In this document: one piece after another, positions 2,868-41,759 of the stretch | Numbering within the stretch: the first letter of the stretch is position 1 | Layout: each line of letters starts with the position of its first letter | Source of the DNA: an uncultured virus (IMG/VR IMGVR_UViG_3300029305_001083) | Taxonomy: Duplodnaviria; Heunggongvirae; Uroviricota; Caudoviricetes | DNA: 64,000 nt | Virus record (IMG/VR): IMGVR_UViG_3300029305_001083 | Reading direction: 5' to 3' (one strand) | Program-made: the position numbers and the translations under genes | The notes under the pieces: model-generated | What the model saw: the letters and a program-made list of their open reading frames with translations, nothing else | What the model was told of the DNA's origin: nothing | The model's database searches: none

Positions 2868-3281
2868 ATGATATACGTTGATAGAACCATAACTGTACAA
2901 CAGGGTTCTAGTAAAATCGATGAACCTGTTATATTATATAGAGGAGATCACGACGTTAGTGTTCGTTTTACGATAATAAACGATAATGTGAAATTTATGA
3001 GTGGGTATAACATGATAGAATACGAGAATTCACCTCATGCTCAGATAATAATATTATCGCCAACAAAAGAAGCCATATTTTCTGATATTTTACGCTGCGA
3101 AGAAGGTGTCGCTGAGTTTACAATACCTCAAGAATTACTAGATGAATTGCGAGAGGTTGGTAAATATTCTTTCCAAATTCGCTTATATGATTACGATTTA
3201 ACCTCTCGTATCACGATCCCTCAGGTTAAGAATGGTATAGTTGTGCGAGAGCCAATTATTACGGGAGCCGATACTCGATAA
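2868..3281 (+). CDS. BppU-N-like baseplate/receptor-binding adaptor protein
   Basis: ILYRGD...VRFTI...G.YSFQIRLYD...RITIP pattern, shared with the next ORF. Confidence 0.55.
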   Translation: MIYVDRTITVQQGSSKIDEPVILYRGDHDVSVRFTIINDNVKFMSGYNMIEYENSPHAQIIILSPTKEAIFSDILRCEEGVAEFTIPQELLDELREVGKYSFQIRLYDYDLTSRITIPQVKNGIVVREPIITGADTR

Positions 3282-10700: not shown

Positions 10701-13418
10701 ATGCCTCATAGATACGCCGATTATAACATTACAATTCAAAATGCCAACATTAACCCAACAAAACATCCAACAATGTTATATCCTCTATTAGTTAACGAGA
10801 ATAAACCAATCGTCGGAACAATTGATTATAGCAACTATCAAGGCGATGATTTATCTTATGTTATGACTTATGCTAATAAATCTGAAGTTGATATTTCTAT
10901 ACCAGATGAGGTAATGATTAACTCTAACTATTCTTATAATATAGATAAAGATAGTGAGTATGAATACAATGACCCTAGAACTATAGCGAAATACACATGT
11001 AATGCTAAAGGGGTATTACCGACATTTAATGATGGATATACGGATTATAGGGTTAGTGAGTTGGATAATGGCGACGGAACTTATACAACTAGCATAATTG
11101 CGGATGATATTAGTATTTTACCAACGAGTATAAATTTTAAAGATTGTAAAGCACTTTTAAAAGTTAGTGCATTAAATACCAGCAAGGTTGAGAATATGAG
11201 TAATATGTTCGGCGGCTGCTCTTCACTAGCCTCTCTAGATACAAGTAACTGGGACACTTCGAATGTTACTAATATGCATAGTGTATTCGTCGACTGCACC
11301 GGACTAACATCTCTAAACCTGAGTAATTGGGATGTTTCGAGCGTTACTACTATGGGTAGTATGTTTCAAAACTGCTCCGGACTAACATCTCTAGACCTAA
11401 GTAACTTCAATACTTCGAAAGTTATTGTTATGAATAGTATATTTAACAACTGCACCGGACTAACATCTCTAAACCTGAGTAACTGGGATACTTCGAGTGC
11501 TAATAATATGAGTTACATGTTTAACAGCTGCCATAGACTAACATCTTTAGATGTAAGTAGTTTCAATACTTCGAATGTTACTAATACAGCTTATATGTTC
11601 CAAAACTGCGCTAGACTAACATCTCTAGACCTAAGTAACTTCAATACTTCGAAAGTTACTGCTATGAATGCTATGTTCCAAAACTGCTCCGGACTAACAT
11701 CTTTAGATGTAAGTAGTTTCGACACTTCGAATGTTATTAATATGTCTGCTATATTTAACAACTGCTCTGGATTAACATCTATAGACGTAAGTAACTGGGA
11801 TGTTTCGAAAGTTACTACCATAAATGGTATGTTCCAAAACTGCACAAGCCTAACATCTCTAGATGTAAGTAACTGGGATACTTCGAGTGTTACTAATATG
11901 ACTTCTGCGTTTAATAACTGTTCATCATTAACATCTATAGACGTAAGTAACTGGGATGTTTCAAAAGTTAATACTATCTCTGATATATTTCGAATGTGTT
12001 CCAAGTTTACTTCATTGGATATTAGCGGATGGGATATTCAAGAGGAATGTAATACGGATCGTTTTGTCTATCAAATGGGTTCGATGTTTACAAATTTAAA
12101 ATGGGGAAACTGGCGATGTTCATTTGATATGACTTATGTAACCTCTCTGACATCCGAATGTCTAAAAGACTTACTAGCCAACTTAGCGACCGTAGCAAAC
12201 GGACAAACTCTAACCCTAGGCTCAACAAACTTAGCTAAAGTCTCAACAGCTGATATTCTAGCAGCCCAACTTAAAGGTTGGACGATGGACGGAGCGACAT
12301 CTACCACCGTAGTATTTGCGTCGGATACAATTAGTGGTAATGATGCTATTACTGAGTGTGGTATACAGTTAACGGATGCTAATAGGAATAAAAGAATTGA
12401 TGAAGTTCTCGGCGCATATACGGCCTGTACGAAATTATATTTGTTCGACGATGGTACCGTTACAAGTCTATACCGTTTATTTTTGAATAACTCAACATAT
12501 AGAAATAGGGTGACAGCTATCGAAATTATCCCAAGTTTCTTTAAAAACGTAACAAATACACAACAGATGTTTCAAGGTTGCTCGAATCTAACTTCTTTGG
12601 ATTTAAGAAGTTTAGATGTTAGCTCTGTTATTGATATGTCTAATATGTTCATCGGCTGCTCTTCACTAGCCTCTCTAGATACAAGTAACTGGGACACTTC
12701 GAATGTTACTAATATGAATGGTATGTTCTATGAGTGTATCGCACTAACATCTCTAGACCTAAGTAACTGGGATGTTTCGAGCGTTACTACTATGAATTAT
12801 ATGTTTTTTGGATGTTCATTTTTAACATCTCTAAATGTTAGCAACTGGGATACCTCGAAGGTTACCGCTATGTATGGTACATTCAAACTATGCTCCCGAC
12901 TAACGTCTCTAGACGTAAGTAACTGGGATACTTTGAGTGTTACTACTATGGGTGGCGTGTTTGATAGCTGCCGTGCCCTAACATCCTTAGACCTAAGTAA
13001 CTGGGATACTTCGAATGTTGCTGATATGTCTAATATGTTCTCCGGATGCTCTAACTTAACATCCTTAGATTTAAGTAGTTGGAATACTCCGAAGGCTACT
13101 AATATAAGTTATATGTTCCGAAGTTGCTCTTCGCTAGAATCTCTAGATATAAGTGATTTCACCGTGACTCCGGAAACATTAACTAATGCTATTTTTAACG
13201 AATGTTCAAACTTAACAATGCTTAAAATCCCAATATGGTACACATCGCTATTTTTATCTCAATCATCCAAGCTTACGTCAGAGTGTCTTAAAGACTTACT
13301 AGCTATTCTAGCGACCGTAACAAACGGACAAACTCTAACCCTAGGCGCAATAAACTTAGCTAAATTAACAGATTCGGAAAAAGCAATAGCCACAAATAAA
13401 GGATGGACATTAGCGTAA
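4797..13418 (+). CDS. giant (2873 aa) tail-associated/adhesin-like protein: LamG-like, CotH-kinase-like, LRR and BspA/DUF285-type repeats
   Basis: YQGTSSMQYPIKNY, FTLKADFM, MVDNLGKNMM, PRFYDCDT (CotH-like); many MF..C..LTSLDxSNWDTSNVT 26-aa repeats. Confidence 0.75.
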   Translation: MAINVGDNFSYQGKKYLDNRQSFKTLSELQAYSNVPEGFIAYCEEDKKRYEYVDGVWTEYVIASSGTGVNPDCATKAYVDELIESHTHDEYLTEHQDISHLATKAEIPSLEGLATETYVQEQIANASLGGGEGGSIDTSNFATKAELNTKFDDVEVNEEETTDSQTALDFFANGEKVKTVYFSGGGGGSAAAAYISTTLPEEAMVETGYDFDILLDFYSPNPGKGTLKVFVNDVDALSTPIIQGETTTTLSHEKLTKGTNKIVVYVLDRIGTMSNSLTFYVRYGSTELVGEFDSSLSYDYGANIRYYFTATALDTSLALTFYMSIDGAVQNGVSCVSDVRGYFTFPNSLEAGGHYCECWVEDSKGGKSNIETFNLVILDTNTLAIVTETRNPSVEEGSQLVLDYRVYKKNETTFIIKTYVDEELVSTGTCGLTTSYYKTTTLREGMHNIKIEAWDTTETVSDYVTWSVIITPSTYTMLEPIKAGSMFMATAKNRTNGDPNRETWTGYNQDNNAIDCTLYNFAFNSESGWMDDQLFITGNSYVEVPIQPLANNARYGFTLDVEFSTKPIGVDDAEVLSLWNDADNCGIKITTDQLILQSKTGNKCELYFSENEIVSAIFIIDRHEKTAKVYLNGVMCAAFALSDYVAEGVSYLEDFTVNDNLYLGKPGSNGYATIKNLRIYELALSSSEILNNFMANEIDKAKQKALVEFQKGEDLPTVTVYCDFSGLGKDDKKYCDIVYNSPDPVKYGESFSLMGKYSQLQYQGTSSMQYPIKNYRLNPRDKDGKVKIKLPHCQPETRFTLKADFMSSGHWQNTGLTKWVNDNLYNYNENDEKSMNPAKWWALQNGKDPNDYRECIYGFPCRLILVNDGNSPLNEGQQEPTPGNTKDMGIFNFNLDKDCENSLGFKIKDFPNALSMEVTANSDTSAGAFMSYGTKEIELPLYNGYGSEYTSVDIPVEQIFGDDESITISYADDANSTLLVRLKNSSGEILTGSYISKEGTVMMSQSNATHCMFIMLRATSGDKTSKETIYIGNKIIFKTINVDENGIQPVFPGEEGELDYIKESFELRYPDEDDVPEGWGFMGMDFYDPKMMVDYWFNPTKSNKFTSVFDKPDYITVETQTADTFSIAYHQDGVWTGQSKYKSGSFVDLRDRTENQIAVYIGATYDDEYIIIDGEKYYYGEECGASEIKDPYIHPTETIHRFDTSYSLKALIDWVDNSTDEQFVAEFEEHFHKDYTLRYFLLVMVLGMVDNLGKNMMLDSYDGKIWMPRFYDCDTICSYDNSGAIKFDVDIEMQQGYWNTSSSRLWTRVRDLFHDELVVKYNDMRQNGLSFESLMNVFYNEQIAKIPQKYYNMDADVKYLPYADEYLGKAHGDGYEHLKRWLKNRIIFTDSLYDYAPSYTNDMITFRANTTEEMSITIETYTPVYQHVSWYNGNMQKEKIAKGTQLTFKGFAQAATDQEVLVYGGSNIKRIIGISTMNPNSMLIGNATRLVELDISDCPILTDINSNKANFTPHTYLNKLDISNCPQLGGSLRLNYSPLIGEINATNTAVTDLQLPSSIRNLHTLKIPGALTSLALNDGPVLSTLEFDGPNNLQSVNLTNCNALTNVVNFDMTQIPAVTLNNSYDADELYMSKTTNLSLVNMANIKKLIFIPNNEHETFNLTELRNCPDYTISAINCPNLKTFMTTAPYRYSYTNGEYGDVTPNTAFCANTLDISNTKITDVNFLCTTDVYQLKLPDTVNNFICDSAYDLDTDYLPDGDFDTVHHELIEAYTTDYTNGYNDRVYIGECNENVDFDFISDGTYLKDGNLNTTTANSATTSKIYVLGGTEISFTRNSLNYSNYFINEYDINGKYLKCTRHFDTHNWNRAITQAVSSDTFYVIISIVDYRELDGSTPSFDTLFKTFSRYEPKTPNLIPSAADGSLIFSMYAPNTNVAVPAEGIWDLYGLTFEEFYTYGMNNDIVVTDGNITMPHRYADYNITIQNANINPTKHPTMLYPLLVNENKPIVGTIDYSNYQGDDLSYVMTYANKSEVDISIPDEVMINSNYSYNIDKDSEYEYNDPRTIAKYTCNAKGVLPTFNDGYTDYRVSELDNGDGTYTTSIIADDISILPTSINFKDCKALLKVSALNTSKVENMSNMFGGCSSLASLDTSNWDTSNVTNMHSVFVDCTGLTSLNLSNWDVSSVTTMGSMFQNCSGLTSLDLSNFNTSKVIVMNSIFNNCTGLTSLNLSNWDTSSANNMSYMFNSCHRLTSLDVSSFNTSNVTNTAYMFQNCARLTSLDLSNFNTSKVTAMNAMFQNCSGLTSLDVSSFDTSNVINMSAIFNNCSGLTSIDVSNWDVSKVTTINGMFQNCTSLTSLDVSNWDTSSVTNMTSAFNNCSSLTSIDVSNWDVSKVNTISDIFRMCSKFTSLDISGWDIQEECNTDRFVYQMGSMFTNLKWGNWRCSFDMTYVTSLTSECLKDLLANLATVANGQTLTLGSTNLAKVSTADILAAQLKGWTMDGATSTTVVFASDTISGNDAITECGIQLTDANRNKRIDEVLGAYTACTKLYLFDDGTVTSLYRLFLNNSTYRNRVTAIEIIPSFFKNVTNTQQMFQGCSNLTSLDLRSLDVSSVIDMSNMFIGCSSLASLDTSNWDTSNVTNMNGMFYECIALTSLDLSNWDVSSVTTMNYMFFGCSFLTSLNVSNWDTSKVTAMYGTFKLCSRLTSLDVSNWDTLSVTTMGGVFDSCRALTSLDLSNWDTSNVADMSNMFSGCSNLTSLDLSSWNTPKATNISYMFRSCSSLESLDISDFTVTPETLTNAIFNECSNLTMLKIPIWYTSLFLSQSSKLTSECLKDLLAILATVTNGQTLTLGAINLAKLTDSEKAIATNKGWTLA
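11140..13220 (+). repeat. two arrays of ~78-bp (26-aa) BspA/DUF285-type leucine-rich repeats
   Basis: Recurrent ctaacatctctaga..taagtaactggga.acttcga; 11213-11276 identical to 12653-12716. Confidence 0.9.
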
Positions 13419-20376: not shown

Positions 20377-20407
20377 ACGCGAAAATTACATTCTGTATTA
20401 TGAGAGA
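20377..20407 (+). promoter_or_regulatory. 31-bp motif copy 5
   Basis: ACGCGAAAATTACATTCTGTATTATGAGAGA. Confidence 0.7.
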
Positions 20408-20475
20408 GTGAGACCTCGGTTGGAGCGGTCATTCACGACGCAGCGCAGGTGGTTCGATTCCACACTCGCTCTTTC
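20402..20475 (+). ncRNA. degenerate tRNA-like RNA
   Basis: 11-bp closing stem GAGAGAGTGAG/CTCGCTCTTTC; T-arm GTGG-TTCGATT-CCAC; D-like CTC-GGTTG-GAG; poor anticodon arm; no CCA. Confidence 0.55.
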
Positions 20476-20512
20476 TTTTTTTGTTTTATATTTTAGAGAG
20501 GAGATGTTTATT

Positions 20513-24466: not shown

Positions 24467-27178
24467 ATGATTGATTTCTTAATGATCTCGACACGTAGTA
24501 CGAAACGAGGCGTTATCGAAATCTATCCAAAATTCATAATCAAAAAGAGCTCCGACCTTATGATTAGAGGTGGAGACTTCTATGCAATATGGTTGGAAGA
24601 ACGAGGATTATGGTCAACCGATGAACAAGACGCACTACAATTAATAGATAAAGAACTTGATAAATACGCGGAAGAGAACAAAGATAGATTTGATGCTACG
24701 ATTCGGGTTCTGCATATGTGGGACGCCGAATCTGGCATGATAGACGCCTGGCATAAATATTGTCAACGGCAAATGCGGGATTCTTTCCATACTCTAGATG
24801 ACAAATTGATATTCTCAAATATGAAAACGGATAAGACGGATTACGCAAGTAAACGACTATCATACCCCCTAGAGGATGGAGACTATTCTTCATTTGAAAA
24901 ACTTATTTCGACTTTATATACTCCAGAGGAAAGACATAAGATTGAATGGTCTATAGGTTCTATTGTATCGGGAGAATCAAAGAATATTCAAAAGTTTATG
25001 GTGTTCTATGGTTCAGCGGGTACAGGTAAGTCGACAATCTTAAATATTATACAACAATTATTCGATGGATATTACTCGGTGTTTGACGCGCGGGCACTGG
25101 GTTCTAGTAGTAATTCATTCGCACTTGAATCATTTAAGAGTAATCCACTTGTAGCTATTCAACATGACGGTGACTTATCACGAATTGAGGATAATACAAG
25201 ACTTAATAGTTTAGTTTCTCATGAGCTGATGACGGTAAATGAAAAGTTTAAAGCCGCATATTCGAGTAGATTTAATTGTTTCTTATATATGGGTACGAAC
25301 AAGCCGGTAAAGATTACAGACGCTAAATCGGGTTTAATACGACGTTTGATAGACGTATCACCGTCAGGTAACAAATTAAGCCCAGTTGAGTATAAAGCAG
25401 TTATGAAAAGAGTCTCATTCGAGCTCGGTGCAATCGCGAAGCACTGTCTGGATGTCTTCAATGCAAACCCGGGAGCATATGACGACTACGTCCCAATCTC
25501 TATGATGGGAGCTTCGAATGATTTCTATAACTATGTATTAGACGCATACCCAGTATTTAAGAAAGAAAACGCAACGACACTTAAATGTGCGTGGGAAATG
25601 TATAAAAACTATTGTGATGAGGCTAAAGTACCATATCCGATGTCGAAACGAGTATTTAAAGAGGAATTAAGAAACTACTTTAAAGATTATAAAGAACGAT
25701 ATAGACTTGATGATGAAACACGAGTTAGAAGTTATTATATAGGTTTCAGAGAAGAGAAATTCGAAGAGGAGCAAACTGAGGTAAAACCTGTAGAAGAGAA
25801 ACCGAAATTGATATTTGAGTATACAGAATCGATATTCGATGAACTATGTGAGGATTGTTTCGCTCAGTATGCTACTGATAAAGGAACACCAAGTAAAAAA
25901 TGGGATAATGTTGCCACGACTCTAAAGGATATTGATACGAGTCAGCTTCATTATGTTAAGGTTCCGGAGAATCATATAGTTATTGACTTTGATATTCCAG
26001 ACGAAAACGGAAACAAGTCATTAGAACGTAATTTAGAAGAAGCAAGCAAATGGCCACCAACTTACGGCGAGCTCAGTAAGAGCGGAAACGGCGTTCACTT
26101 GCATTATATTTACACGGGAGACCCTAGTAAACTTAGCTCGATATATTCCGAACATATTGAGGTTAAGGTATACTCGGGTAAAAGTTCATTAAGACGTAAA
26201 CTTACGAGATGTAATGATTTACCTATAGCAAATATTAGTTCTGGGTTACCATTGAGAGGAGAGGATAAAGTGGTTAACTTTGAGGCTATTAAAACTGAGA
26301 AAGGTATTCGTACGCTTATTAAGCGAAATATTAGAAAGGAGATTCATCCGGGAACAAAACCTAGCATCGACTTTATTCATAAGATATTAGAAGATGCTTA
26401 TAATAGCGATTTACATTATGATGTAACGGATTTACGACCAGCAGTACTATCATTTGCAGCACAGAGCACACATCAAGCTGATTATTGTATTAAGTTAGTG
26501 AACCAAATGCAGTTTAAATCAAAAGAAGCATCAAATGCAGTGTTGAATGATAGTGAAAAAATTATATTCTACGATGTTGAGGTATTCCCTAACTTGTTCT
26601 TAGTCAATTGGAAATTCCAAGGAGACGACCAAAAAGTGGTTCGTATGATTAACCCTAAGCCGGCTCAAATAGAAGAGTTGATGCGTTTTAGACTTGTTGG
26701 GTTTAACTGTAGACGATACGATAATCATATTATGTATGCAAGAATGATGGGATATTCTAACGAACAATTATACAAACTATCACAAAAAATTGTTACACAA
26801 GGTCAAGGATTCTTCGGAGAGGCGTATAACTTATCATATACGGACGTTTACGACTTTGCGGCTAAGAAACAATCTCTTAAAAAATGGGAGATTGAACTAG
26901 GTATTCATCACCAAGAGTTAGGATTACCTTGGGATGAGCCGGTACCAGAAGAACGTTGGATTGAAGTAGCTGAATATTGTGATAATGATGTTATTGCTAC
27001 AGAAGCAGTATTCAACGAATTAAAAGGCGACTTTACAGCGAGAAAGATATTAGCCGACTTAGCTGGTATGACAGTAAATGATACAACAAATACGCTTACT
27101 ACAAGAATTATATTTGGTAAAGAACGTCACCCTCAACTTGTCTATACAGACTTGGCAACGGGTGAACAATTCTATTAG
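24467..27178 (+). CDS. fused SF3-type helicase, primase (AEP-like) and 3'-5' proofreading exonuclease
   Basis: Walker A GSAGTGKS; VIDFD...SKSGNGVHLHY; ExoI FYDVEVF, ExoII GFNCRRYD, ExoIII YCDNDV. Confidence 0.85.
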   Translation: MIDFLMISTRSTKRGVIEIYPKFIIKKSSDLMIRGGDFYAIWLEERGLWSTDEQDALQLIDKELDKYAEENKDRFDATIRVLHMWDAESGMIDAWHKYCQRQMRDSFHTLDDKLIFSNMKTDKTDYASKRLSYPLEDGDYSSFEKLISTLYTPEERHKIEWSIGSIVSGESKNIQKFMVFYGSAGTGKSTILNIIQQLFDGYYSVFDARALGSSSNSFALESFKSNPLVAIQHDGDLSRIEDNTRLNSLVSHELMTVNEKFKAAYSSRFNCFLYMGTNKPVKITDAKSGLIRRLIDVSPSGNKLSPVEYKAVMKRVSFELGAIAKHCLDVFNANPGAYDDYVPISMMGASNDFYNYVLDAYPVFKKENATTLKCAWEMYKNYCDEAKVPYPMSKRVFKEELRNYFKDYKERYRLDDETRVRSYYIGFREEKFEEEQTEVKPVEEKPKLIFEYTESIFDELCEDCFAQYATDKGTPSKKWDNVATTLKDIDTSQLHYVKVPENHIVIDFDIPDENGNKSLERNLEEASKWPPTYGELSKSGNGVHLHYIYTGDPSKLSSIYSEHIEVKVYSGKSSLRRKLTRCNDLPIANISSGLPLRGEDKVVNFEAIKTEKGIRTLIKRNIRKEIHPGTKPSIDFIHKILEDAYNSDLHYDVTDLRPAVLSFAAQSTHQADYCIKLVNQMQFKSKEASNAVLNDSEKIIFYDVEVFPNLFLVNWKFQGDDQKVVRMINPKPAQIEELMRFRLVGFNCRRYDNHIMYARMMGYSNEQLYKLSQKIVTQGQGFFGEAYNLSYTDVYDFAAKKQSLKKWEIELGIHHQELGLPWDEPVPEERWIEVAEYCDNDVIATEAVFNELKGDFTARKILADLAGMTVNDTTNTLTTRIIFGKERHPQLVYTDLATGEQFY

Positions 27179-27179
27179 T

Positions 27180-27210
27180 ACGCGAAAATAACAACGTATA
27201 TTATGAGAAA
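27180..27210 (+). promoter_or_regulatory. 31-bp motif copy 6
   Basis: ACGCGAAAATAACAACGTATATTATGAGAAA. Confidence 0.7.
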
Positions 27211-27287
27211 GAAGGGTAGCTCAACCAGGTGAGAGCAGCACCGTAAAACGTGAAGGTTGTCGGTTCAAATCCGACCTCTTCTTTTTC
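27205..27287 (+). ncRNA. tRNA-like RNA/pseudo-tRNA between exonuclease and polymerase ORFs
   Basis: Acceptor AGAAGGG/CTCTTCT (extendable to 12 bp), TA, D-arm GCTC..GG..GAGC, T-arm GTCGG-TTCAAAT-CCGAC; defective anticodon arm; no CCA. Confidence 0.7.
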
Positions 27288-27314
27288 TTTTCTATTTTAA
27301 AGGAGAGGATTATT

Positions 27315-28514
27315 ATGGATATTATCAACGCATTCCCTGGATATGAATATATCGACGGTAAGAATATTTATCGAGGGGATGATTTAGGAAAAGGAGGTTA
27401 TGTTTATGCTGAACCAGGTATGTATGGTAACGTGGCTTTATTGGATGTCGCTTCTATGCATCCGAATTCAGCTATCAATTTAAACGCATTCGGTGAGTAT
27501 ACACAAAACTTCAAAGATATTTTAGATACACGTATCGCTATTAAGAGAGGTGATTTTGATAAAGCCAAGCATTTGTTCGGTGGGAGATTAGCTAAATATT
27601 TAGATGATGAATCTTCAGCCGCAGCACTAGCTCAGGCTTTAAAGATTGCGATTAACTCTGTATATGGATTAACATCGGCAAACTTCGATAATCCATTTCG
27701 AGATATTAGAAACAAAAACAATATTGTAGCATTACGCGGGGCATTATTTATGCGAACACTTCAAGACGAAATTCAAAAACGAGGATTCAAGGTTGCTCAT
27801 ATTAAAACAGACTCTATTAAGATTCCAGACGCAACTCCGGAGATTATAGAATTCACCATGGATTTCGCCAAGCAGTATGGATACGAATTCGAACATGAGG
27901 CTACTTATGATAGAATGTGTCTTGTGAACGACGCTGTATACATTGCTAAATATGCTACAGCTGAGGATTGTATTAGTCAATATGGATATTCTCCAGGTGA
28001 CAACAAAAAGAAAGGTGGTAAATGGACGGCAACTGGTACTCAATTTCAAATACCATATGTATTCAAAAAACTGTTCTCTAAGGAGGAGATAACTTTCGAT
28101 GATTTGTGTGAGACGAAATCGGTAACTAGCTCTTTATATTTAGATATGAATGAAAATCTTGAGGAAGGAGAACATAACTATATATTCATTGGTAAAATAG
28201 GACGATTCTGTCCAATCAAAGAAGGATGCGGAGGAGGAATACTATATAGAGAAAAAGACGGTAAATACAATGCAGCAACCGGTTCTAAAGGATACCGATG
28301 GTTGGAATCAGAAATGGTTGAGAAACTGGGAAAGGTGGATGATATTGACCACAAACATTTTATTGAAATGGTTGATACGGCTATTGATGCTATTAATAAG
28401 TACGGGGATTTTGAATGGTTTATTTCGGATGATTTATATGTTAAACCACCATTAATTGTAGGAGAATACGGACTATACCCGTTTTACGAGGGAGATGATA
28501 TTTGTGACTCATGA
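27315..28514 (+). CDS. family B DNA polymerase catalytic domain
   Basis: LLDVASMHP (motif A), KIAINSVYG (B), IKTDS (C). Confidence 0.85.
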   Translation: MDIINAFPGYEYIDGKNIYRGDDLGKGGYVYAEPGMYGNVALLDVASMHPNSAINLNAFGEYTQNFKDILDTRIAIKRGDFDKAKHLFGGRLAKYLDDESSAAALAQALKIAINSVYGLTSANFDNPFRDIRNKNNIVALRGALFMRTLQDEIQKRGFKVAHIKTDSIKIPDATPEIIEFTMDFAKQYGYEFEHEATYDRMCLVNDAVYIAKYATAEDCISQYGYSPGDNKKKGGKWTATGTQFQIPYVFKKLFSKEEITFDDLCETKSVTSSLYLDMNENLEEGEHNYIFIGKIGRFCPIKEGCGGGILYREKDGKYNAATGSKGYRWLESEMVEKLGKVDDIDHKHFIEMVDTAIDAINKYGDFEWFISDDLYVKPPLIVGEYGLYPFYEGDDICDS

Positions 28515-30999: not shown

Positions 31000-32862
31000 A
31001 TGTCAAAATCCGAAAACGAGTTAATTGATGCCGTGTGCGGTTTATTGGATTTTACGAACCAAGACGTTCTAACAGAGAACGCGAATAAGCAGTCTCAACT
31101 TGTGTCTACTCAACGAGATTTAATGGCTGGGGAAGTAAGCAAATATATTTCTAAAACAAAAATTCTACCACGGCATCTAGTTGAAGCTCACGATAGAGGC
31201 GAAATAAAAATTCACGATTTAGACTATTATTTAAACTCAACATATAATTGCGAATTGATAAATTTAGATGATATGCTACAAAACGGTACTGTTATTAATA
31301 AAAAGATGATTGAAAAACCTAAATCATTAAGAACTGCCATGACCATCGTAACGCAAATAGCCGCTCAGGTGGCTTCTTCCACTTACGGTGGTCAAACTAT
31401 TTCACTATCTCATATAGCACCTTTTGTTAGAATAAGCGAGGAAAAAATTACTAAAAAATACAAAGCTATGGACTTACCTGTTACAGACGAACGCTTGCAA
31501 GAATTGATTAATAAAGAGTTGCAAGACGAGGTTAAGGATGCTGTCCAAACCTTTAACTATCAAGTATCAACGCTCATGACCACAAACGGGCAATCACCAT
31601 TTATCTCAGTATGCATGTATATTTCCGAAAAACCGGAATATGAAAAAGAAACCGTGATATTAATCGAAGAGTTTTTAAAACAACGAATCGCTGGACTAAA
31701 AAATGAGTATGGAGTTGTGGCCACTCAAACATTTCCTAAACTATTATATTTTCTAGATGAAAACAACACTTATCCGGGAAGCGAATACTATTGGTTAACA
31801 AAGCTTGCAGCTAAATCAACAGCGTTACGAATGAATCCTGACGTGATTTCAGTTAAGAAAATGAAAGAATTACACGGTTACGCATTTCCGCCTATGGGTT
31901 GCCGAGCTTTCTTAAGCGTATTCAAAGATAAAAACGATGAGGCTATATTCTACGGACGAGGTAACCTTGGTGTATGTTCGGTGAATCTACCATATGCAGC
32001 TCTTGAATCAGGAGGCGATGTTAGAAAATTCTTTAAAATAATGGATGAGAAGTTAGAACTAGCGAGACAAGTATGCGAGTTACGTTATGAAAAATTACGA
32101 GGGGTTAAGGCTAGTATTGCTCCGATCTTATGGCAACACGGAGCGATTTCAAGACTTGGTCCGGACGATGACATTTTAAAAGCTATCGATGAACGAGGAT
32201 TCACAGTAACCATTGGATATTCTGGTTTATATGAAACTGTAAAATACTTAACTGGCGAATCACATACTTCAGAAAAAGGTTTCGAATTAGCGGAACACAT
32301 AATGAGATATTTACGAGACACATTAGGAAACTTTAAAATTAACCAACCTCATTTACGATTCGCGCTATATGGTACACCTCAAGAATCAACCACAGGCTGG
32401 TTTAGCGAAAAACTACGAGCACGATTTGGCGATGTACCGGATATTACAGATAAAGGTTGGATTACCAATTCTTATCATGTCGATATTCGTGAAGAGATAG
32501 ACGCATTTGAGAAATTAAATATTGAGGGTAAATTACAAAGATATTCTACGGGAGGAGCTGTTAGTTATATTGAAACAAGTCCGTTATATAATAATGTCAG
32601 TGCTGTTCTCAAGTTATACGAACACATGTACGAAACGATCATCTACTCGGAAATCAACTTCGAAAGCGACGTCTGCGGAGTTTGTAAATACTCGGGAGTC
32701 ATGGAAAACGACCCAGAAACGTTAGATTGGGTTTGTCCGGTATGCGGTAATAGAGACCAAACTAAATTAAGTGTAGTACGACGAACATGTGGATATTTAG
32801 GTGAGACTACCTGGACGACTGGGAGAAAGTTGGATATTCTTAATAGAATTAAACATTTATAA
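31000..32862 (+). CDS. nrdD: anaerobic (class III) ribonucleoside-triphosphate reductase, no ATP-cone
   Basis: IHDLDY, YGGQT, PMGCR, YGTPQES, CxxC/CxxC, RRTCGYLG glycyl-radical loop. Confidence 0.95.
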   Translation: MSKSENELIDAVCGLLDFTNQDVLTENANKQSQLVSTQRDLMAGEVSKYISKTKILPRHLVEAHDRGEIKIHDLDYYLNSTYNCELINLDDMLQNGTVINKKMIEKPKSLRTAMTIVTQIAAQVASSTYGGQTISLSHIAPFVRISEEKITKKYKAMDLPVTDERLQELINKELQDEVKDAVQTFNYQVSTLMTTNGQSPFISVCMYISEKPEYEKETVILIEEFLKQRIAGLKNEYGVVATQTFPKLLYFLDENNTYPGSEYYWLTKLAAKSTALRMNPDVISVKKMKELHGYAFPPMGCRAFLSVFKDKNDEAIFYGRGNLGVCSVNLPYAALESGGDVRKFFKIMDEKLELARQVCELRYEKLRGVKASIAPILWQHGAISRLGPDDDILKAIDERGFTVTIGYSGLYETVKYLTGESHTSEKGFELAEHIMRYLRDTLGNFKINQPHLRFALYGTPQESTTGWFSEKLRARFGDVPDITDKGWITNSYHVDIREEIDAFEKLNIEGKLQRYSTGGAVSYIETSPLYNNVSAVLKLYEHMYETIIYSEINFESDVCGVCKYSGVMENDPETLDWVCPVCGNRDQTKLSVVRRTCGYLGETTWTTGRKLDILNRIKHL

Positions 32863-32874
32863 GGAGAGGATAAT

Positions 32875-33372
32875 ATGAATTATTCAAAAATGTTAAAATA
32901 CGACGCTAGTAACTGGGACGGGATTACGGCCACAATATTCTTTAGTGGTTGTAAATTCCGTTGTCCTGGTTGTTTTAATAGTGAGTTATGGGATTTTAAA
33001 TGCGGACAACCGTTCGATAAAAAAGCGAAAAAACAGTTTATATCCTATGCGAAAAACCCACACGTTGATGGTGTATGCTTATTAGGAGGCGAAGTATTTC
33101 AACAAGATTTGGATGAGATATTAGACCTGGTTATTCAACTGACTCGCGAGGTTAAGAAACCGATTCACGTATGGTCTGGGTATACATTCGAAGAGTTAAT
33201 GGCAGATGAGAAATCGATGGTTATTCTACACTACATCGACACATTAGTGGATGGGCCATTTATATTTAAACAAAAAGACCTAACACTTAAATATCGCGGT
33301 AGCTCGAATCAAAGAGTTATCGACGTTAAGCGAAGTTTAAGCGAGGGTAAAGTGGTGATAATTGATGACTAA
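32875..33372 (+). CDS. nrdG: class III RNR activase (radical SAM)
   Basis: SGCKFRCPGCFN, LLGGE, LVDGPF, RGSSNQRVID. Confidence 0.95.
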   Translation: MNYSKMLKYDASNWDGITATIFFSGCKFRCPGCFNSELWDFKCGQPFDKKAKKQFISYAKNPHVDGVCLLGGEVFQQDLDEILDLVIQLTREVKKPIHVWSGYTFEELMADEKSMVILHYIDTLVDGPFIFKQKDLTLKYRGSSNQRVIDVKRSLSEGKVVIIDD

Positions 33373-33425
33373 AAAAGAGAAAGAGGTAAAAGAAAACAAG
33401 AAGTACAAAAAGCGTAAAAAGAAAC

Positions 33426-33456
33426 GCGCGAAATAAACAAGTCCTATTATGAGAGA
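33426..33456 (+). promoter_or_regulatory. 31-bp motif copy 7
   Basis: GCGCGAAATAAACAAGTCCTATTATGAGAGA. Confidence 0.7.
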
Positions 33457-33482
33457 ACATTAATTCGAAGGGGCGATTCTTT

Positions 33483-33644
33483 ATGAATGGAAATCAAAAT
33501 GATACTATTAAAATTATGAGCATGGACAGAAAGTTATTAGCAACTGTGCATTTCAAAGAAGATGGTTCATACGAGATTATTCCAAACGACGAAAGATACG
33601 ACTACTACGAAGGAAAATGGGATGACGACTTAGATTGGGATTGA
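33483..33644 (+). CDS. 53-aa acidic protein (cassette ORF, not in ORF track)
   Basis: MNGNQNDTIKIMSMDRK...WDDDLDWD; AAGGGG SD; hairpin 33643-33662. Confidence 0.65.
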   Translation: MNGNQNDTIKIMSMDRKLLATVHFKEDGSYEIIPNDERYDYYEGKWDDDLDWD

Positions 33645-33697
33645 GAGACTTCACGGTCTCTTTTCCTTTTGACTTTAAAATCATGGAGGATGATAAA

Positions 33698-34213
33698 ATG
33701 AGTTTAGAATACGATATGTTATTAGAGCGTCATAGAGACAATGTTAAGAATGGATATTTATGGATTAAGCGATACTTACCCGAGCTTCTGATTGCGGGTT
33801 ATGATTATGGAATGTATATTGAGGCACATGATATGTCTAAAAACGATAGAGACGAATATGATGCAGCTGATGCTTTTCTATTTGGACCAGAAGATGTTGA
33901 GGCTAGAGCAAATTATAGAAGATCGCAACTACATCATAGACATCGAAACCCACATCATTGGGAGTTCTGGATTCTACACACAAGCAATACTCCAGCTATG
34001 ATTCTTGATATGGAGTATCCTTATATTATCGAAATGATTTGTGATTGGTGGTCTTTCAGTTGGGAGACTGGTGATTTGTTTGATATTTTCGACTGGTATG
34101 AAGAACACAAACACAATATTAAATTAAGCAAAAAGACAAAACGAACAGTTGAAGATATTTTATCTAAGCTTCATCTTAGATTAATTATGGTCAAGGGACC
34201 TAGAGAAAACTAA
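33698..34213 (+). CDS. HD-like metal-dependent hydrolase (DUF5662-like)
   Basis: H...V, AHDMSK, HHRHRNPHHWE, EMICDW. Confidence 0.7.
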   Translation: MSLEYDMLLERHRDNVKNGYLWIKRYLPELLIAGYDYGMYIEAHDMSKNDRDEYDAADAFLFGPEDVEARANYRRSQLHHRHRNPHHWEFWILHTSNTPAMILDMEYPYIIEMICDWWSFSWETGDLFDIFDWYEEHKHNIKLSKKTKRTVEDILSKLHLRLIMVKGPREN

Positions 34214-34235
34214 AAAATAAAGGGAGAGTGTTATT

Positions 34236-34511
34236 ATGACATGGTTAACTGTTATTATGGCTTGTGCGCTTGGTATGATGACTATTGGGTGTAATGGAGA
34301 TATGACTAAAAAAGAGGAAAGAAAATATTCTTATGAATATTGTCGTAAAAATCTTAGCGTCAATTACTATGATAATTGGCGTTGCGAAGACATCGCTTAT
34401 CAATTACAAGATAATTGGTTAAAAGATGATTTGGAATATTTAATGCGACATGGATATTCTTTCGAACGTGCCGTCAACGAGTTAGTCGAAGACGGTAAAA
34501 TGCATCTATAA
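34236..34511 (+). CDS. putative lipoprotein
   Basis: Hydrophobic N-terminus ending TIGC. Confidence 0.5.
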   Translation: MTWLTVIMACALGMMTIGCNGDMTKKEERKYSYEYCRKNLSVNYYDNWRCEDIAYQLQDNWLKDDLEYLMRHGYSFERAVNELVEDGKMHL

Positions 34512-34561
34512 AATCATACTAGGTCCCCTGACCTTAGTTAATCTAAAAAGGAGAGAGAAAA

Positions 34562-34777
34562 ATGTTAAAATTATTATTAATCTTAGAATGCTTAAAAGAA
34601 TTATTCTTAGTGGTGTTAGTTGGAGCCTTCACTTCAATTCTATCAGCAATTGTGGTTGTATATGTTGTTGTTAAAGTCTTAGGAATTAAAGAAATTCTAG
34701 ACATGGAAGATGAAGAGGATTATATTCTTACTAAAGATGATGAAAAAATTCCATATGATGACGAGACTCAAGAGTAA
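34562..34777 (+). CDS. small membrane protein with acidic tail
   Basis: Long hydrophobic stretch; SD. Confidence 0.6.
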   Translation: MLKLLLILECLKELFLVVLVGAFTSILSAIVVVYVVVKVLGIKEILDMEDEEDYILTKDDEKIPYDDETQE

Positions 34778-34789
34778 AGGAGAGATAAT

Positions 34790-35623
34790 ATGTTATTAGA
34801 TGGTAAAAAATATGCTGAGGCTAAGGTCTCAGAATTAAAAGAACGAGCTTCAAAATTACCAAAGAAACCAATGTTAGCTATTATTCAAGTTGCTGGCGAT
34901 ATTGCTAGCGACGTATATGTACAAAACAAATTTAAACGATGTATTGAAGTTGGCGTTGTTCCTAAACTATTCTACTTCTTAGACAACGCTCAACAATGGC
35001 AAATCCAAAACAAAATCTACGAGTTAAATATGGATGACGAGATTACGGGAATCTTATTACAATTACCATTACCCGACCATCTTGACGCTGAATATTTAAC
35101 AAACCTTATCGACCCTCGTAAGGATGTAGATGGATTCACAGAAACTAATACTGGTAGATTATCGTTAGGTAAACCAGGTAACATTCCATGTACCGCTAAA
35201 GGTGTTATCGACATGTTAGACTTCTATGATATTCCACTAGAGGGTAAAGACGTGTTAATTATTAATAGAAGCGATATTGTTGGTAAACCTTTAGCCCAAT
35301 TATTCTTACAACGAAACGCAACAGTAACCGTCGCACATAGTAAAACACAGAATCTTAAAGAAAAAGTAAAACAAGCAGATATTGTTGTTACGGCTGTAGG
35401 TAAACCAAACTTCTTGAAATATGATGATTTTAAAGAAGGAGCTACAGTTATCGATGTCTCTATCAATTTCGTTAACGGACGAATGTATGGAGATGTTAAG
35501 AAAACAAGTTATGGATATTTACAAACACTAGGTAACCTTACTCCGGTACCAGGAGGAGTCGGGCAAGCTACCGTTATTGCTTTAATCGATAATGTTATCA
35601 CAATTGCAGAGGAGGAGTTATGA
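34790..35623 (+). CDS. folD: methylenetetrahydrofolate dehydrogenase/cyclohydrolase
   Basis: LLDGK, YVQNK, GILLQLPLP, KDVDG, PCT, RSDIVGKP, TPVPGGVG. Confidence 0.95.
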   Translation: MLLDGKKYAEAKVSELKERASKLPKKPMLAIIQVAGDIASDVYVQNKFKRCIEVGVVPKLFYFLDNAQQWQIQNKIYELNMDDEITGILLQLPLPDHLDAEYLTNLIDPRKDVDGFTETNTGRLSLGKPGNIPCTAKGVIDMLDFYDIPLEGKDVLIINRSDIVGKPLAQLFLQRNATVTVAHSKTQNLKEKVKQADIVVTAVGKPNFLKYDDFKEGATVIDVSINFVNGRMYGDVKKTSYGYLQTLGNLTPVPGGVGQATVIALIDNVITIAEEEL

Positions 35624-35717: not shown

Positions 35718-36050
35718 ATGGAAGCGAGAGAATATCAGGAGTTAGCAGCACGAACAATTAACAAAACATTACATGATTATGAGGTTGAGCAACACGCATT
35801 ACATGGTATGGCTAGTGAAATCGGAGAATTACATGGGTTATATCAAAAAGCATATCAAGGACATGGATTTGATGGTGAACATGCTAAAAAAGAGCTCGGC
35901 GATTTACTTTGGTTTATCGCTGAGTACTGCACTGCTATGAATTGGGATTTAGGTGAGGTGATGTTTAAAAATATTTCTAAGTTATTAGCACGTTATCCTG
36001 AAGGTTTCAAAGCTGAAAATAGCTTAAATCGAGAAGAGGGGGATATCTGA
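35718..36050 (+). CDS. MazG-like nucleotide pyrophosphohydrolase
   Basis: EYQELA.RT, GMASEIGE, KELGDLLW, N..KL..RYP. Confidence 0.85.
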   Translation: MEAREYQELAARTINKTLHDYEVEQHALHGMASEIGELHGLYQKAYQGHGFDGEHAKKELGDLLWFIAEYCTAMNWDLGEVMFKNISKLLARYPEGFKAENSLNREEGDI

Positions 36051-37886: not shown

Positions 37887-37917
37887 ACGCGAAATTTACA
37901 TGCCCTTTTATGAGGAG
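37887..37917 (+). promoter_or_regulatory. 31-bp motif copy 10
   Basis: ACGCGAAATTTACATGCCCTTTTATGAGGAG. Confidence 0.7.
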
Positions 37918-38083
37918 AGAGGCCGTCAGAATCCGATGGTTATAAGAATCATTCTTTCTCTCTTCATTTTCGTCGTTATGACGAAGCGAAGGAGGAAGAC
38001 ATAATAACACCTCCTTGACTATTTATATTCTACTTAGCCGGACTGACACTCCGGCTTTTAATTTTTTAAAAAGGAGGGATACT

Positions 38084-38912: not shown

Positions 38913-41759
38913 ATGGCTTATGATGATAAACCGTCTTTAGATGAATTAATTCACTATGGGATGCCTAGACGTTCTGGGCGTTACCCTTGGGGTAGTGGTA
39001 AAGACCCTCATCAACATTGCACAGACTTTCTTTCACGCATCCAATATATGTCTGAAAACGGAGTTAGCGATGAAGATATTGCTAAATCTATGGGGTTAAC
39101 AAAAGAACAGTTTGAAACTGAAAAATCATTTGCTGTTGTACATGATATGACTAAACGCGGTAAAACAGAAAAAGAAATCGCTGACGCTTTAGGTAGTACT
39201 ACGACTAAAGTTCGTTTACAAAAAACAATGATTAAAGATGGGCACAGAGCTGTTGAGGTCGATATCGCTAAAGATTTGAGAGATCAAGGATATTCTTTAA
39301 ACGAAATCGCCAAACAAATGGGGTATAAAAATGACTCTTCTGTTCGTAGTTTGTTAAATGCTGAGTCTGAAAGTAGAATGAAACAAGCTAGAAAAACAGC
39401 TGACTTTCTAAGAGACCAAGTTGACCAAAAAGGTATGATTGATATTGGTGCAGGTGTAGAGAGAGAATTAGGTATTTCTAAAGAAAAACTAGATCAAGCT
39501 GTAATGATGCTTGAAATGGAAGGTTATAAACGATTTGGTGGAGGGGTTTCTCAAGTTAATAATCCAGGAAAACAAACTAACCTTAAAGTATTAGCTGCTC
39601 CCGATAAAGAATGGAAAGATATGTATGATTATAAAAATGTACATTCTGTTGTGGACTATCACACTCATGATGATGGAGAAACATTCGATACATTTAAATA
39701 CCCTTCATCATTTGATTCTAAACGTTTAGCCATAAGATACGCTGAAGATGGTGGTATTGAGAAAGATGGACTTGTTGAGATTCGTAGAGGATGTAAAGAT
39801 TTAGATTTAGGTGGTTCACACTATGCTCAAGTTCGTATCATGGTGGATGGAACACACTACATTAAAGGTATGGCTGTATATTCTGATGATTTACCAGATG
39901 GTGTTGATATTATGTTTAACACTAACAAAGGTAAAAACAAAGCTAAAATGGATGTATTAAAACCAATTAAAGATGATCCCGATAATCCATTCGGAGCCTT
40001 AGTTAAAGCTGGTGGACAAAGTTATTATATTGATGATAATGGAGAGAGAAAGCTATCACCAATTAATAAAACAAGAGAAGAAGGGGATTGGAATGACTGG
40101 AGCGACAGCTTACCATCTCAATTCTTATCAAAACAAAGTCTTAAATTAGTAAAACAACAAACGGGTTTGGCTGTTGCTGATAAACAAGCAGAATTCGATG
40201 AGATAATGACAATAACAAACCCAACTGTTAAAAAAGCATTATTGAAATCATTTGCTGATGAATGCGATTCAACTGCTGTTCACCTAGATGCAGCATCTTT
40301 ACCTGGTCAAAGATACCAAGTTATTCTTCCAGTACCAAGCATTAAAGATAACGAAATCTATGCTCCAAACTTTGAAAATGGTACGAAAGTTGCTTTAGTC
40401 CGCTACCCACATGGTGGTATATTTGAAATACCAATTCTAACTGTTAATAATAAGCAAGCCGATGCTGAAAAAATGATAGGTAAAAACGCATTAGATGCTG
40501 TATGTATTAACTCAAAGGTAGCAGAGCAACTATCAGGAGCGGATTTCGATGGTGATACCGCCATGGTTATACCTACAGGTAGAGGGGTGAATATTAAAAA
40601 CAAACCCCCACTAAAAGAACTAGAAGGATTCGATCCTAAAATGCAGTATCCTGAAGTACCTGGTATGAAGTATATGAAGTCGGTTGACGCGAATGGTAAA
40701 ACAGTAGACAATACGCAACAAGAAATGGGTAAAATTTCAAACTTAATAACTGATATGACATTGATGGGCGCTAATGATCAAGAATTGGCTAGAGCCGTTA
40801 AACATTCGATGGTTGTAATTGATGCTGGTAAACATAAACTAAACTATAAACTAAGTGAGAAAGAGAATAATATAGCTGAATTAAAAAGAAGATACCAAGG
40901 ACATATAGATGAAGATGGTAAGTATAGAGAAGGAACTGGTACTATTGTATCAAGAGCTAAGGGTCAAGAGTCCGTATTAAAAAGACAAGGATCACCAATT
41001 ATAGACCCCGAGACTGGAAAACAAACATGGAAAGTTGCCGATGATGTAACATATGAAAAGGAAGTTATAAACCCTAAAACTGGTGAGGTCACTTATAAAA
41101 CTGTAACTAAAACACAAAAGAGTACTAAGATGGAAGAGACTGATGATGCATTCACATTAGTTAGTAAATTCAGAGAGCCTAGAGAAATAGCTTATGCTGA
41201 ATACGCTAATAAAATGAAATCCATGGCTAATGAAGCACGTAAGATCATGGTGAATACAAAAGACATTCCATACTCCCCAGATGCTAAAGCTAAATACGCC
41301 CCCCAAGTAGACCGTTTAAACGCCGCCCTTAACGTAGCCCTAAAGAACGCCCCTAAGGAACGCCAGGCTCAAACAATAGCCAATGCTATAGTGCAAGCTA
41401 AAAAAGCCGACAATCCTGACATGACAAAAAAAGAAATTAGGAAGGCTGGACAACAAGCCTTAGATAAAGCCCGTAAGCAAGTAGGGGCTAAAAGAGAATT
41501 AATTAAAATTTCAGACTTAGAATGGGAAGCTATACAGGCAGGCGCCATCAGTCCTAATAAGCTCCAACAAATACTAAATAACTGTGACCTAGATGTTGTT
41601 AGACAAAAGGCCACTCCTAAAGTAACTAATTCATTAAGCCAAGCTAAAGTTAATCATATAGCAACACTTAAGGAGTCTGGTTATACAAATGAACAGATAG
41701 CATCTAAATTAGGTGTTTCTGTGTCTACAATTATTAATCATATGAAAGGAGAGAATTAA
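38913..41759 (+). CDS. putative single-subunit two-barrel (RdRP/YonO-like) DNA-dependent RNA polymerase with fused HTH domains
   Basis: DG...AQVR...KG; LVRYP; LSGADFDGD (DFDGD at 40542-40556); MGKISN; HSMVVIDAGK; three N-terminal and one C-terminal HTH-like segments. Confidence 0.8.
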   Translation: MAYDDKPSLDELIHYGMPRRSGRYPWGSGKDPHQHCTDFLSRIQYMSENGVSDEDIAKSMGLTKEQFETEKSFAVVHDMTKRGKTEKEIADALGSTTTKVRLQKTMIKDGHRAVEVDIAKDLRDQGYSLNEIAKQMGYKNDSSVRSLLNAESESRMKQARKTADFLRDQVDQKGMIDIGAGVERELGISKEKLDQAVMMLEMEGYKRFGGGVSQVNNPGKQTNLKVLAAPDKEWKDMYDYKNVHSVVDYHTHDDGETFDTFKYPSSFDSKRLAIRYAEDGGIEKDGLVEIRRGCKDLDLGGSHYAQVRIMVDGTHYIKGMAVYSDDLPDGVDIMFNTNKGKNKAKMDVLKPIKDDPDNPFGALVKAGGQSYYIDDNGERKLSPINKTREEGDWNDWSDSLPSQFLSKQSLKLVKQQTGLAVADKQAEFDEIMTITNPTVKKALLKSFADECDSTAVHLDAASLPGQRYQVILPVPSIKDNEIYAPNFENGTKVALVRYPHGGIFEIPILTVNNKQADAEKMIGKNALDAVCINSKVAEQLSGADFDGDTAMVIPTGRGVNIKNKPPLKELEGFDPKMQYPEVPGMKYMKSVDANGKTVDNTQQEMGKISNLITDMTLMGANDQELARAVKHSMVVIDAGKHKLNYKLSEKENNIAELKRRYQGHIDEDGKYREGTGTIVSRAKGQESVLKRQGSPIIDPETGKQTWKVADDVTYEKEVINPKTGEVTYKTVTKTQKSTKMEETDDAFTLVSKFREPREIAYAEYANKMKSMANEARKIMVNTKDIPYSPDAKAKYAPQVDRLNAALNVALKNAPKERQAQTIANAIVQAKKADNPDMTKKEIRKAGQQALDKARKQVGAKRELIKISDLEWEAIQAGAISPNKLQQILNNCDLDVVRQKATPKVTNSLSQAKVNHIATLKESGYTNEQIASKLGVSVSTIINHMKGEN

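Follow-up and report, generated by a model that had tools for sequence, protein, structure and literature searches.

The 64,000-nucleotide sequence of an uncultured virus (IMG/VR record IMGVR_UViG_3300029305_001083; the whole stretch is called the window below) comes from a member of the 1706/FP_oengus group of phages and contains terminase, portal, capsid and tape measure genes. Here we describe its replicase, which is encoded by two genes, together with a promoter-like motif and a tRNA-shaped RNA in the gap between them. The open reading frame (ORF) of the upstream chain stops at TAG 27176–27178 and is followed by the sixth copy of the motif, a cloverleaf, a Shine–Dalgarno (SD) site and the ATG for the family B DNA polymerase (PolB) chain. 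A first-pass annotation of this DNA had reported the same elements at the same positions; it had placed the motif directly after the stop, which the motif does adjoin, although it begins 2 nt further on. The features of the locus are as follows.

24467–27178, + strand: replicase upstream chain, 903 aa, with SF3 helicase, AEP primase and 3′–5′ exonuclease (phrog_4210, GP55, DUF5906).
27181–27204, + strand: promoter-like motif, copy 6 of 10, with a putative start site at G27205.
27205–27287, + strand: tRNA-shaped non-decoding RNA (ARAGORN, Rfam, covariation).
27205–27216 paired with 27276–27287, + strand: terminal stem of the RNA, 12 bp (minimum free energy (MFE) fold).
27219–27236 and 27259–27275, + strand: D arm and T arm of the RNA (MFE fold).
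27239–27252, + strand: arm at the anticodon position, with a 3-bp stem and an 8-nt loop.
27282–27298, + strand: U-rich run in the sequence, a probable leaky terminator.
27300–27308, + strand: SD site of the PolB chain, from the sequence, with the ATG at 27315.
27315–28514, + strand: replicase downstream chain, 399 aa, PolB palm, fingers and thumb (phrog_4210, GP55; catalytic motifs intact).

The two ORFs match consecutive parts of one protein family. The 903-aa chain covers positions 1–923 of the 1304 positions of phrog_4210 and is 41.8% identical to residues 22–909 of GP55 from phage 1706; the 399-aa chain covers positions 920–1289 and is 39.3% identical to GP55 residues 907–1298. The domain order (SF3 helicase, AEP primase, exonuclease, PolB) and the homology to GP55 make the pair a GP55-type replicase, but it is not a single polypeptide: a stop, a new SD and an ATG separate the chains throughout the window's clade (see below). 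Residues D44, K110, N114, Y117, G118 and D166 of the PolB chain are invariant in 24 sequences. In comparisons with the window, dN/dS is 0.013–0.030 for the PolB half (six of nine comparisons, the other three being saturated) and 0.009–0.042 for the exonuclease end (the 180 codons before the seam, nine of nine comparisons). Judged by these ratios, strong purifying selection acts on both ORFs. With two cistrons, purifying selection and intact catalytic residues, the locus encodes a naturally split PolB, and the two-chain replicase proposed in the first-pass annotation is supported.

The split falls in the loop between exonuclease and palm. In a structural model of the fused relative L158, whose fold matches family B polymerases, the seam falls in the least confident block (predicted local distance difference test (pLDDT) 61, mean 90). 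When the two halves were modelled as a complex, the score was 0.75, versus 0.00 for the best of three controls; 116 of 157 solved pairs and 2 of 215 mismatched ones reach the mark of 0.75. Contact agreement between runs was at least 71% and partner pLDDT at least 88; residues 193–210 of the exonuclease piece contact residues 5–11 of the PolB chain. Because the halves of split genes tend to pass by their likeness to solved structures, we regard the model as modest support. The 120 best standalone PolB homologues (392–418 aa) all open at the same seam, fused alleles of other phages hold 30–55 additional residues there, and an intein-sized extra segment is absent from both ORFs when compared with phrog_4210.

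Uninterrupted alleles, which the first-pass annotation had expected, do exist. Among 65 viral loci found via the PolB half, 61 are fused and four split; 80 metagenome loci comprise 65 fused, 10 split and five without the upstream half. A pattern for the linker tail returned 41 loci (14 fused, 21 split, six unrelated; four repeat loci of the viral set), and since it picks out one linker type these counts are not frequencies for the whole family. A tree built quickly from PolB halves, with 51 of the 52 rows selected (L164 was too short) and SH-aLRT support only, places the window in a clade of 16 rows (support 97), all of them split and each with one promoter copy in the gap. The sister pair, L161 and L172, is also split and has small ORFs in the gap but no promoter, so that all 18 rows of the joint clade (support 97) are split; L158, the next row outside it, is fused. 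A cloverleaf is found at the seam in the window, L002 and L078 only, the other 13 rows of the clade being without one. In L070, the nearest relative by its PolB half (98% identical), the gap measures 70 nt and holds the promoter and a minimal hairpin only. In the remaining gaps of the clade there are hairpins and structured RNAs of other kinds, and as many as three small ORFs.

The same seam is broken in other ways elsewhere. The gap of L159 and L164 is 16–17 nt long and holds an SD only, and nine loci outside the window's clade carry an HNH-type ORF in the gap. HNH_3/NUMOD Pfam matches were obtained for the gap ORFs of all seven such loci scanned (weakly for L169); L153 was judged by eye and L166 is a repeat of L152. 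In the fused L082 both tails of the break are present, joined by eight residues, which identifies the tails as ancestral linker. Fused and split alleles are interleaved on the tree, with eight state changes, and a single split clade is rejected (p-AU 2.5e-6, approximately unbiased test). On this phylogeny, splits of the replicase arose repeatedly in the family. In the 23 of 28 split loci covered, gaps span 16–964 nt, use all three frames and end the upstream ORF with TAG, TAA or TGA, often with whole ORFs inside; a purine-rich SD precedes the downstream start in all 23. Cargo ORFs in replicase gaps include one with an NAD-ligase N-terminal-like domain (L075:3571-3996) and one encoding MazG (L157:9662-9985).

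ARAGORN reports the RNA in the window's gap as tRNA-??? at 27209–27284, and it scores 45.2 bits against the Rfam tRNA model (RF00005, gathering score 29); these are the tRNA-finder checks that the first-pass annotation had suggested. The 12-bp stem, D arm and T arm that it described are present in the MFE fold, the discriminator is U and no CCA is encoded. Compared with a canonical tRNA the acceptor, D and T arms are kept, and the features needed for decoding are lost: the 5-bp anticodon stem, the 7-nt loop, U33 and purine 37. The anticodon arm, earlier called broken, is indeed non-canonical, but its 3-bp stem is maintained by compensatory changes beneath an 8-nt loop. The folding z-score is only −1.96, with 10 of 200 shuffles equally good. 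In the three alleles at the seam 100% of cells are paired and three pairs have changed on both sides (two in the anticodon stem, one in the T stem), a result matched by 21 of 500 shuffles. The RNA differs from those of L001 and L078 in 10 and 9 of 83 columns, compared with 37–58% of nearby synonymous sites. The T arm and U tail form the sole terminator-like site between 26900 and 27500 (0.2 ± 0.6 in shuffles). Termination at the U-run may well be leaky; given the essential PolB chain behind it, it cannot be complete. Neither a self-splicing intron nor a tmRNA was matched in the window by Rfam or ARAGORN, Rfam yielding tRNA only. The window contains a second unit of this design, upstream of the replicase:

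20378–20484, + strand: second promoter, followed by an RNA unit of this design that is more degenerate (model R1; 22 bits and E 0.0011 for 20402–20479).

All 10 copies of the motif lie on the + strand. The full 26-nt pattern, which was derived from these copies themselves, had no match in 100 shuffles; the 13-nt core with three mismatches was not above chance (32 versus 27.6). A profile of 200 non-redundant copies reads CGCG-AAA and ACA, followed by an AT-rich box, a G and a purine-rich stretch, and no sigma-70 site is present on the + strand at the motif. In 31 of 77 copies classed as ‘direct SD’ promoters the SD starts at +1 to +5, which suggests that transcription starts at the motif's G; in the gap, G27205 is quite probably the first nucleotide. 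The motif behaves as the promoter-like element that had been suspected, and its likely reader is a polymerase of the phage's own:

38913–41759, + strand: homologue of phage single-subunit RNA polymerases (phrog_4291; Pfam RdRP and HTH matches).

The family of this polymerase has been described in a paper whose consulted passages do not mention promoters (10.1101/842583). Phage 1706 has no copy of the window-type promoter pattern. Several promoters are followed by multi-hairpin RNAs that are not cloverleaves, at 37912–37965 of the window, in the gaps of L075/L079 and L003 and in L165 near 13256; the L075/L079 type reappears in L165 at a different locus.

The RNA in the gap is one of many. Applied to 299 phage loci, a cloverleaf finder gave at least 46 non-redundant hits, 38 of which start no more than 8 nt from a promoter G and eight of which do not. 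Promoter and unit counts for the family are lower bounds, and the figure of 38 is the unedited count of a stricter finder that misses some units; in a separate set of 63 candidates, nine were discarded on inspection because the T arm was false or the sequence was non-phage. CCA is encoded in none of the 38 promoter-anchored units versus all eight ordinary tRNAs of these phages, a canonical anticodon loop is present in 5/38 versus 8/8, and the discriminator is a pyrimidine in 38/38 and A in 8/8 (Fisher p 5e-6 for the contrast, with rows that are not independent). An anticodon-position stem of at least 4 bp occurs in 36 of the 38, compared with 10.9 (maximum 19) in 500 shuffles. When 36 units are aligned (alignment A5, omitting L279 and L281 with their long loops), 94% of cells are paired and 22 of 26 pairs have changed on both sides, including the extension past the acceptor stem. 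None of 500 shuffles scored as high and slid controls gave 39–57%. The cloverleaf thus covaries, both among the three seam alleles and across these 36 units; a lack of covariation was one result that the first-pass annotation had named as fatal to its proposal.

Downstream of the 38 units there is an SD and a gene in 20 cases, the next promoter within 45 nt in seven and neither in 11. The seven with no gene behind them suggest that the RNA is probably a product independent of any downstream gene. Among 39 loci fetched regardless of promoter or RNA, several of which repeat the same phage, units are present in 21, and 28 of the 122 promoter copies there run into a unit. Rfam matched no family besides tRNA in the window or in 20 family loci. 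Two cultured phages have unannotated units: FP_oengus at 2932–3012, followed by the next promoter, and phage 1706 between orf42 and orf43 (L437:26076-26190), where ARAGORN misses it. The latter has a longer, bulged terminal stem, a stub anticodon arm and a variant promoter-like box that was judged by eye. In L154, L169 and L274 ordinary tRNA genes stand close behind a non-decoding unit, which suggests read-through of the U-run.

Some units depart from the common form. L162 has three degenerate units within 3 kb, one directly before another promoter, and in L233, L234, L253, L266 and L306 the D arm is intact, the anticodon-position arm long and the T loop rebuilt. L189 (∼763 nt from the reverse-strand start) carries a promoter-anchored permuted RNA within a terminal stem, in the order T arm, closed acceptor-like hairpin, D arm, a topology like that of YrlA. 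G3-U70 is the alanine identity pair; it occurs in 10 of the 38 units, mostly related ones (L207, L213, L217, L244, L249, L264, L278 and others), but not in the window, and as the discriminators are all pyrimidines we rejected an alanine identity. Strict patterns for the window allele matched only L001/L002/L004 among viral contigs; nine matches in genomes were unrelated tRNA-like or chance sequences. A pattern of promoter plus D arm gave mostly chance matches in genome contigs and was left out of the counts.

Taken together, we favour a reading, to which we give a probability of about 0.68, in which the replicase was split into two chains long ago and a cassette of promoter and tRNA-shaped RNA came to occupy the gap later. 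The two chains would re-associate without splicing, the conserved tail of the first docking on the head of the second. The break would be old, lie within a tolerant surface loop and have occurred several times in the replicase family, the most likely agents being HNH homing endonuclease genes of the free-standing kind, lost later in the window's lineage; for the window's clade, analogy with the HNH-bearing loci makes this origin probable. The gap may then have become an ordinary cargo slot, entered by promoter, stem-loop, U-run and SD, in which small ORFs and RNAs come and go. The RNA would start at G27205, the 12-bp stem would seal both ends and part of the transcripts would end at the U-run, the promoter yielding a stable non-decoding RNA of ∼85 nt and a read-through PolB mRNA whose 5′ end is protected. 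What may have preserved the tRNA elbow is its recognition by host enzymes binding to the tRNA body. We picture the unit as a PeSL-like module of promoter, stem-loop and SD whose stem-loop is a tRNA-shaped RNA.

Several points weigh against this reading. Neither the window nor its clade showed an HNH gene or a remnant of one, so that an HNH origin there is an argument by analogy, and homing or recombination can scramble a quick PolB tree. The ‘direct SD’ class, on which the start site depends, included some misfiled RNA units, and such SDs may serve read-through from upstream. L070 has no cloverleaf, hence a cloverleaf is not required for PolB expression. The U-run is strong in 26 of the 38 anchored units and weak in 12. 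The finder patterns require D- and T-arm words, which builds the conservation of these arms partly into the set, and the 38 units are not mutually independent. The RNA-run material consists of contigs of four runs, mostly from relatives.

The first-pass annotation had the split made in one step, by a cassette of ∼135 bp with promoter and tRNA-like RNA that inserted into the linker. The promoter in 16 of 16 gaps of the clade and the motif only 2 nt past the stop fit this, and T4-type phages have mobile promoter–stem-loop cassettes (PMC2839356). Yet no promoter accompanies the split of the sister pair, and the cloverleaf is present in only 3 of 16 rows and absent even from L070; bare splits (L159 and L164, SD only) and the nine HNH loci use the same seam, and the fused L082 has both tails. 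A one-step origin would survive only if the sister pair had lost its promoter or split separately, and the agent would then be a promoter–hairpin rather than the cloverleaf RNA. We consider it improbable: on this distribution the cassette does not appear to have created the split and most likely colonised an older, pre-existing gap. Still less credible is that the ORFs are rejoined by an intron, ribosomal bypass or a split intein, which the first-pass annotation had itself rated as less likely. One contig from an RNA run (X18) joins 27178 to 27299, but it retains the stop and SD with unknown letters between them, and its record length would fit a different, longer spacer; with the stop kept, we rejected its apparent skipping of the cassette as splicing. 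The variable lengths, frames and stops of the gaps and the SD and start in every one of them (23 of 28 loci) argue against rejoining, as do the Rfam result for the window and the missing intein-sized segment.

The RNA itself could be a cut signal, RNase P and RNase Z recognizing its elbow and acceptor stem and so separating the two cistrons. Conservation of the D/T elbow and of 7 bp or more of stem, against a drifting anticodon loop, would suit such a role, as would the SD and gene behind 20 of 38 units, and RNase P is able to cut the tRNA mimic YrlA (PMC4201824). We think it unlikely, since with a promoter immediately upstream no 5′ cut is needed, the leader/trailer pairing covaries, simple hairpins substitute in close kin and 7 of 38 units have no gene before the next promoter. 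It could also be a decaying tRNA pseudogene, retained merely as a terminator or 5′ hairpin. The weak folding z-score points that way, as does a series that begins with the cloverleaf, passes to degenerate units (window 20402, L162) and ends in minimal hairpins, some of them bearing a D-arm-like word; the anticodon-position stem kept in 36 of 38 units, far above shuffles, the compensatory T- and anticodon-stem changes between alleles at one locus and the same pattern of loss in distant phages including 1706 point the other, and leave decay about as doubtful as cutting. We speculate further, very tentatively and thinking it rather unlikely, that the 1706/FP_oengus phages carry a widespread and so far undescribed class of tRNA mimics with sealed ends and no anticodon, transcribed straight from promoters of the phage RNA polymerase, which would act as decoys against host defences or against stress sensors recognizing the tRNA body. 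The drifting loop would keep such mimics off ribosomes and away from anticodon nucleases, and one copy would sit inside a replicase gene that homing endonucleases have repeatedly split at one seam.

Elsewhere in the window, 4797–13418 encodes a protein of 2873 aa in which a CotH-like kinase domain is combined with numerous DUF285/LRR repeats. An anaerobic ribonucleotide reductase, its activase and a FolD homologue lie at 31000–35623, and a MazG gene at 35718–36050, away from the replicase gap. Both ends of the window (1–51 and ∼63953–64000) have the same sequence, within a repeat-rich tail gene, which reflects either an internal repeat or a circular assembly.

GP55-type replicases and split PolBs are already known. 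A split GP55 or a class of promoter-anchored tRNA-shaped RNAs was described in no paper found in the open-licence literature (supplements excluded), and the RNA family is apparently undescribed. The locus shows that selection can still maintain a four-in-one replicase after a cut between its exonuclease and palm; the split offers a natural design for dissecting GP55, and the family supplies a large number of homing-type fissions that recur at a single site. Of the two, the RNA class is the bigger lead: its units are called tRNA-??? by annotation tools or are missed, and the copies in two cultured phages make the role of phage tRNA-like RNAs directly testable.

GP55 of Lactococcus phage 1706 (PMC12205980, PMC4889955) shares the domain order of the window's replicase, whose seam maps to GP55 residues 907–911, but is a single chain of 1317 aa in place of two genes; the word ‘split’ is absent from the main text of PMC12205980 (supplements left aside). 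Naturally split PolBs are known from T4-like phages (gp43A/gp43B) and from Rhodothermus phage RM378 (PMC2988022, PMC3061061). The T4-like enzymes are split in the fingers, whereas the window's split lies in a helicase-primase-PolB fusion and leaves the proofreading domain with the helicase-primase; unlike the T4-like and RM378 splits, it recurs at one seam, with promoter and RNA in the gap. Whether an endonuclease made or invaded the split of T4-like gene 43 is unsettled (PMC2988022), and the same doubt applies to the HNH genes at the replicase seam.

The closest parallel to the cassette is PeSL of T4-type phages (PMC2839356), likewise an intergenic unit that occurs repeatedly, is built of stop codon, promoter, stem-loop and SD, and has small ORFs shuffled about its copies. 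PeSL promoters have a sigma-70 consensus, which the window's motif has not, and the window-type stem begins at the putative +1 and is often a full tRNA-shaped RNA, ‘tRNA’ being absent from the main text of PMC2839356. Cargo varies on either side of the promoter, which is compatible with PeSL-type recombination between copies and with mini-circles but does not demonstrate them. T4 RNAC and RNAD (PMC3014915), phage small RNAs of the tRNA region, are likened to the RNA here by their description only. With canonical tRNA (RF00005) the window's RNA shares U8, A9, a D arm with GG, the T arm and a variable loop; it differs in its 8-nt loop on a 3-bp stem without U33/R37 geometry, its paired leader and trailer, its pyrimidine discriminator and the missing CCA. 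YrlA had no Rfam match in the window, and a Pfam scan of 37 window proteins (86 ORFs listed) gave no match to TROVE (Ro60). Like the window's RNA, YrlA is non-decoding and has a tRNA-like elbow (PMC4201824), but it lies beside Ro60 and runs in the order T, closed acceptor loop, D, whereas the RNA in the replicase gap keeps the normal order of D, anticodon-position and T arms.

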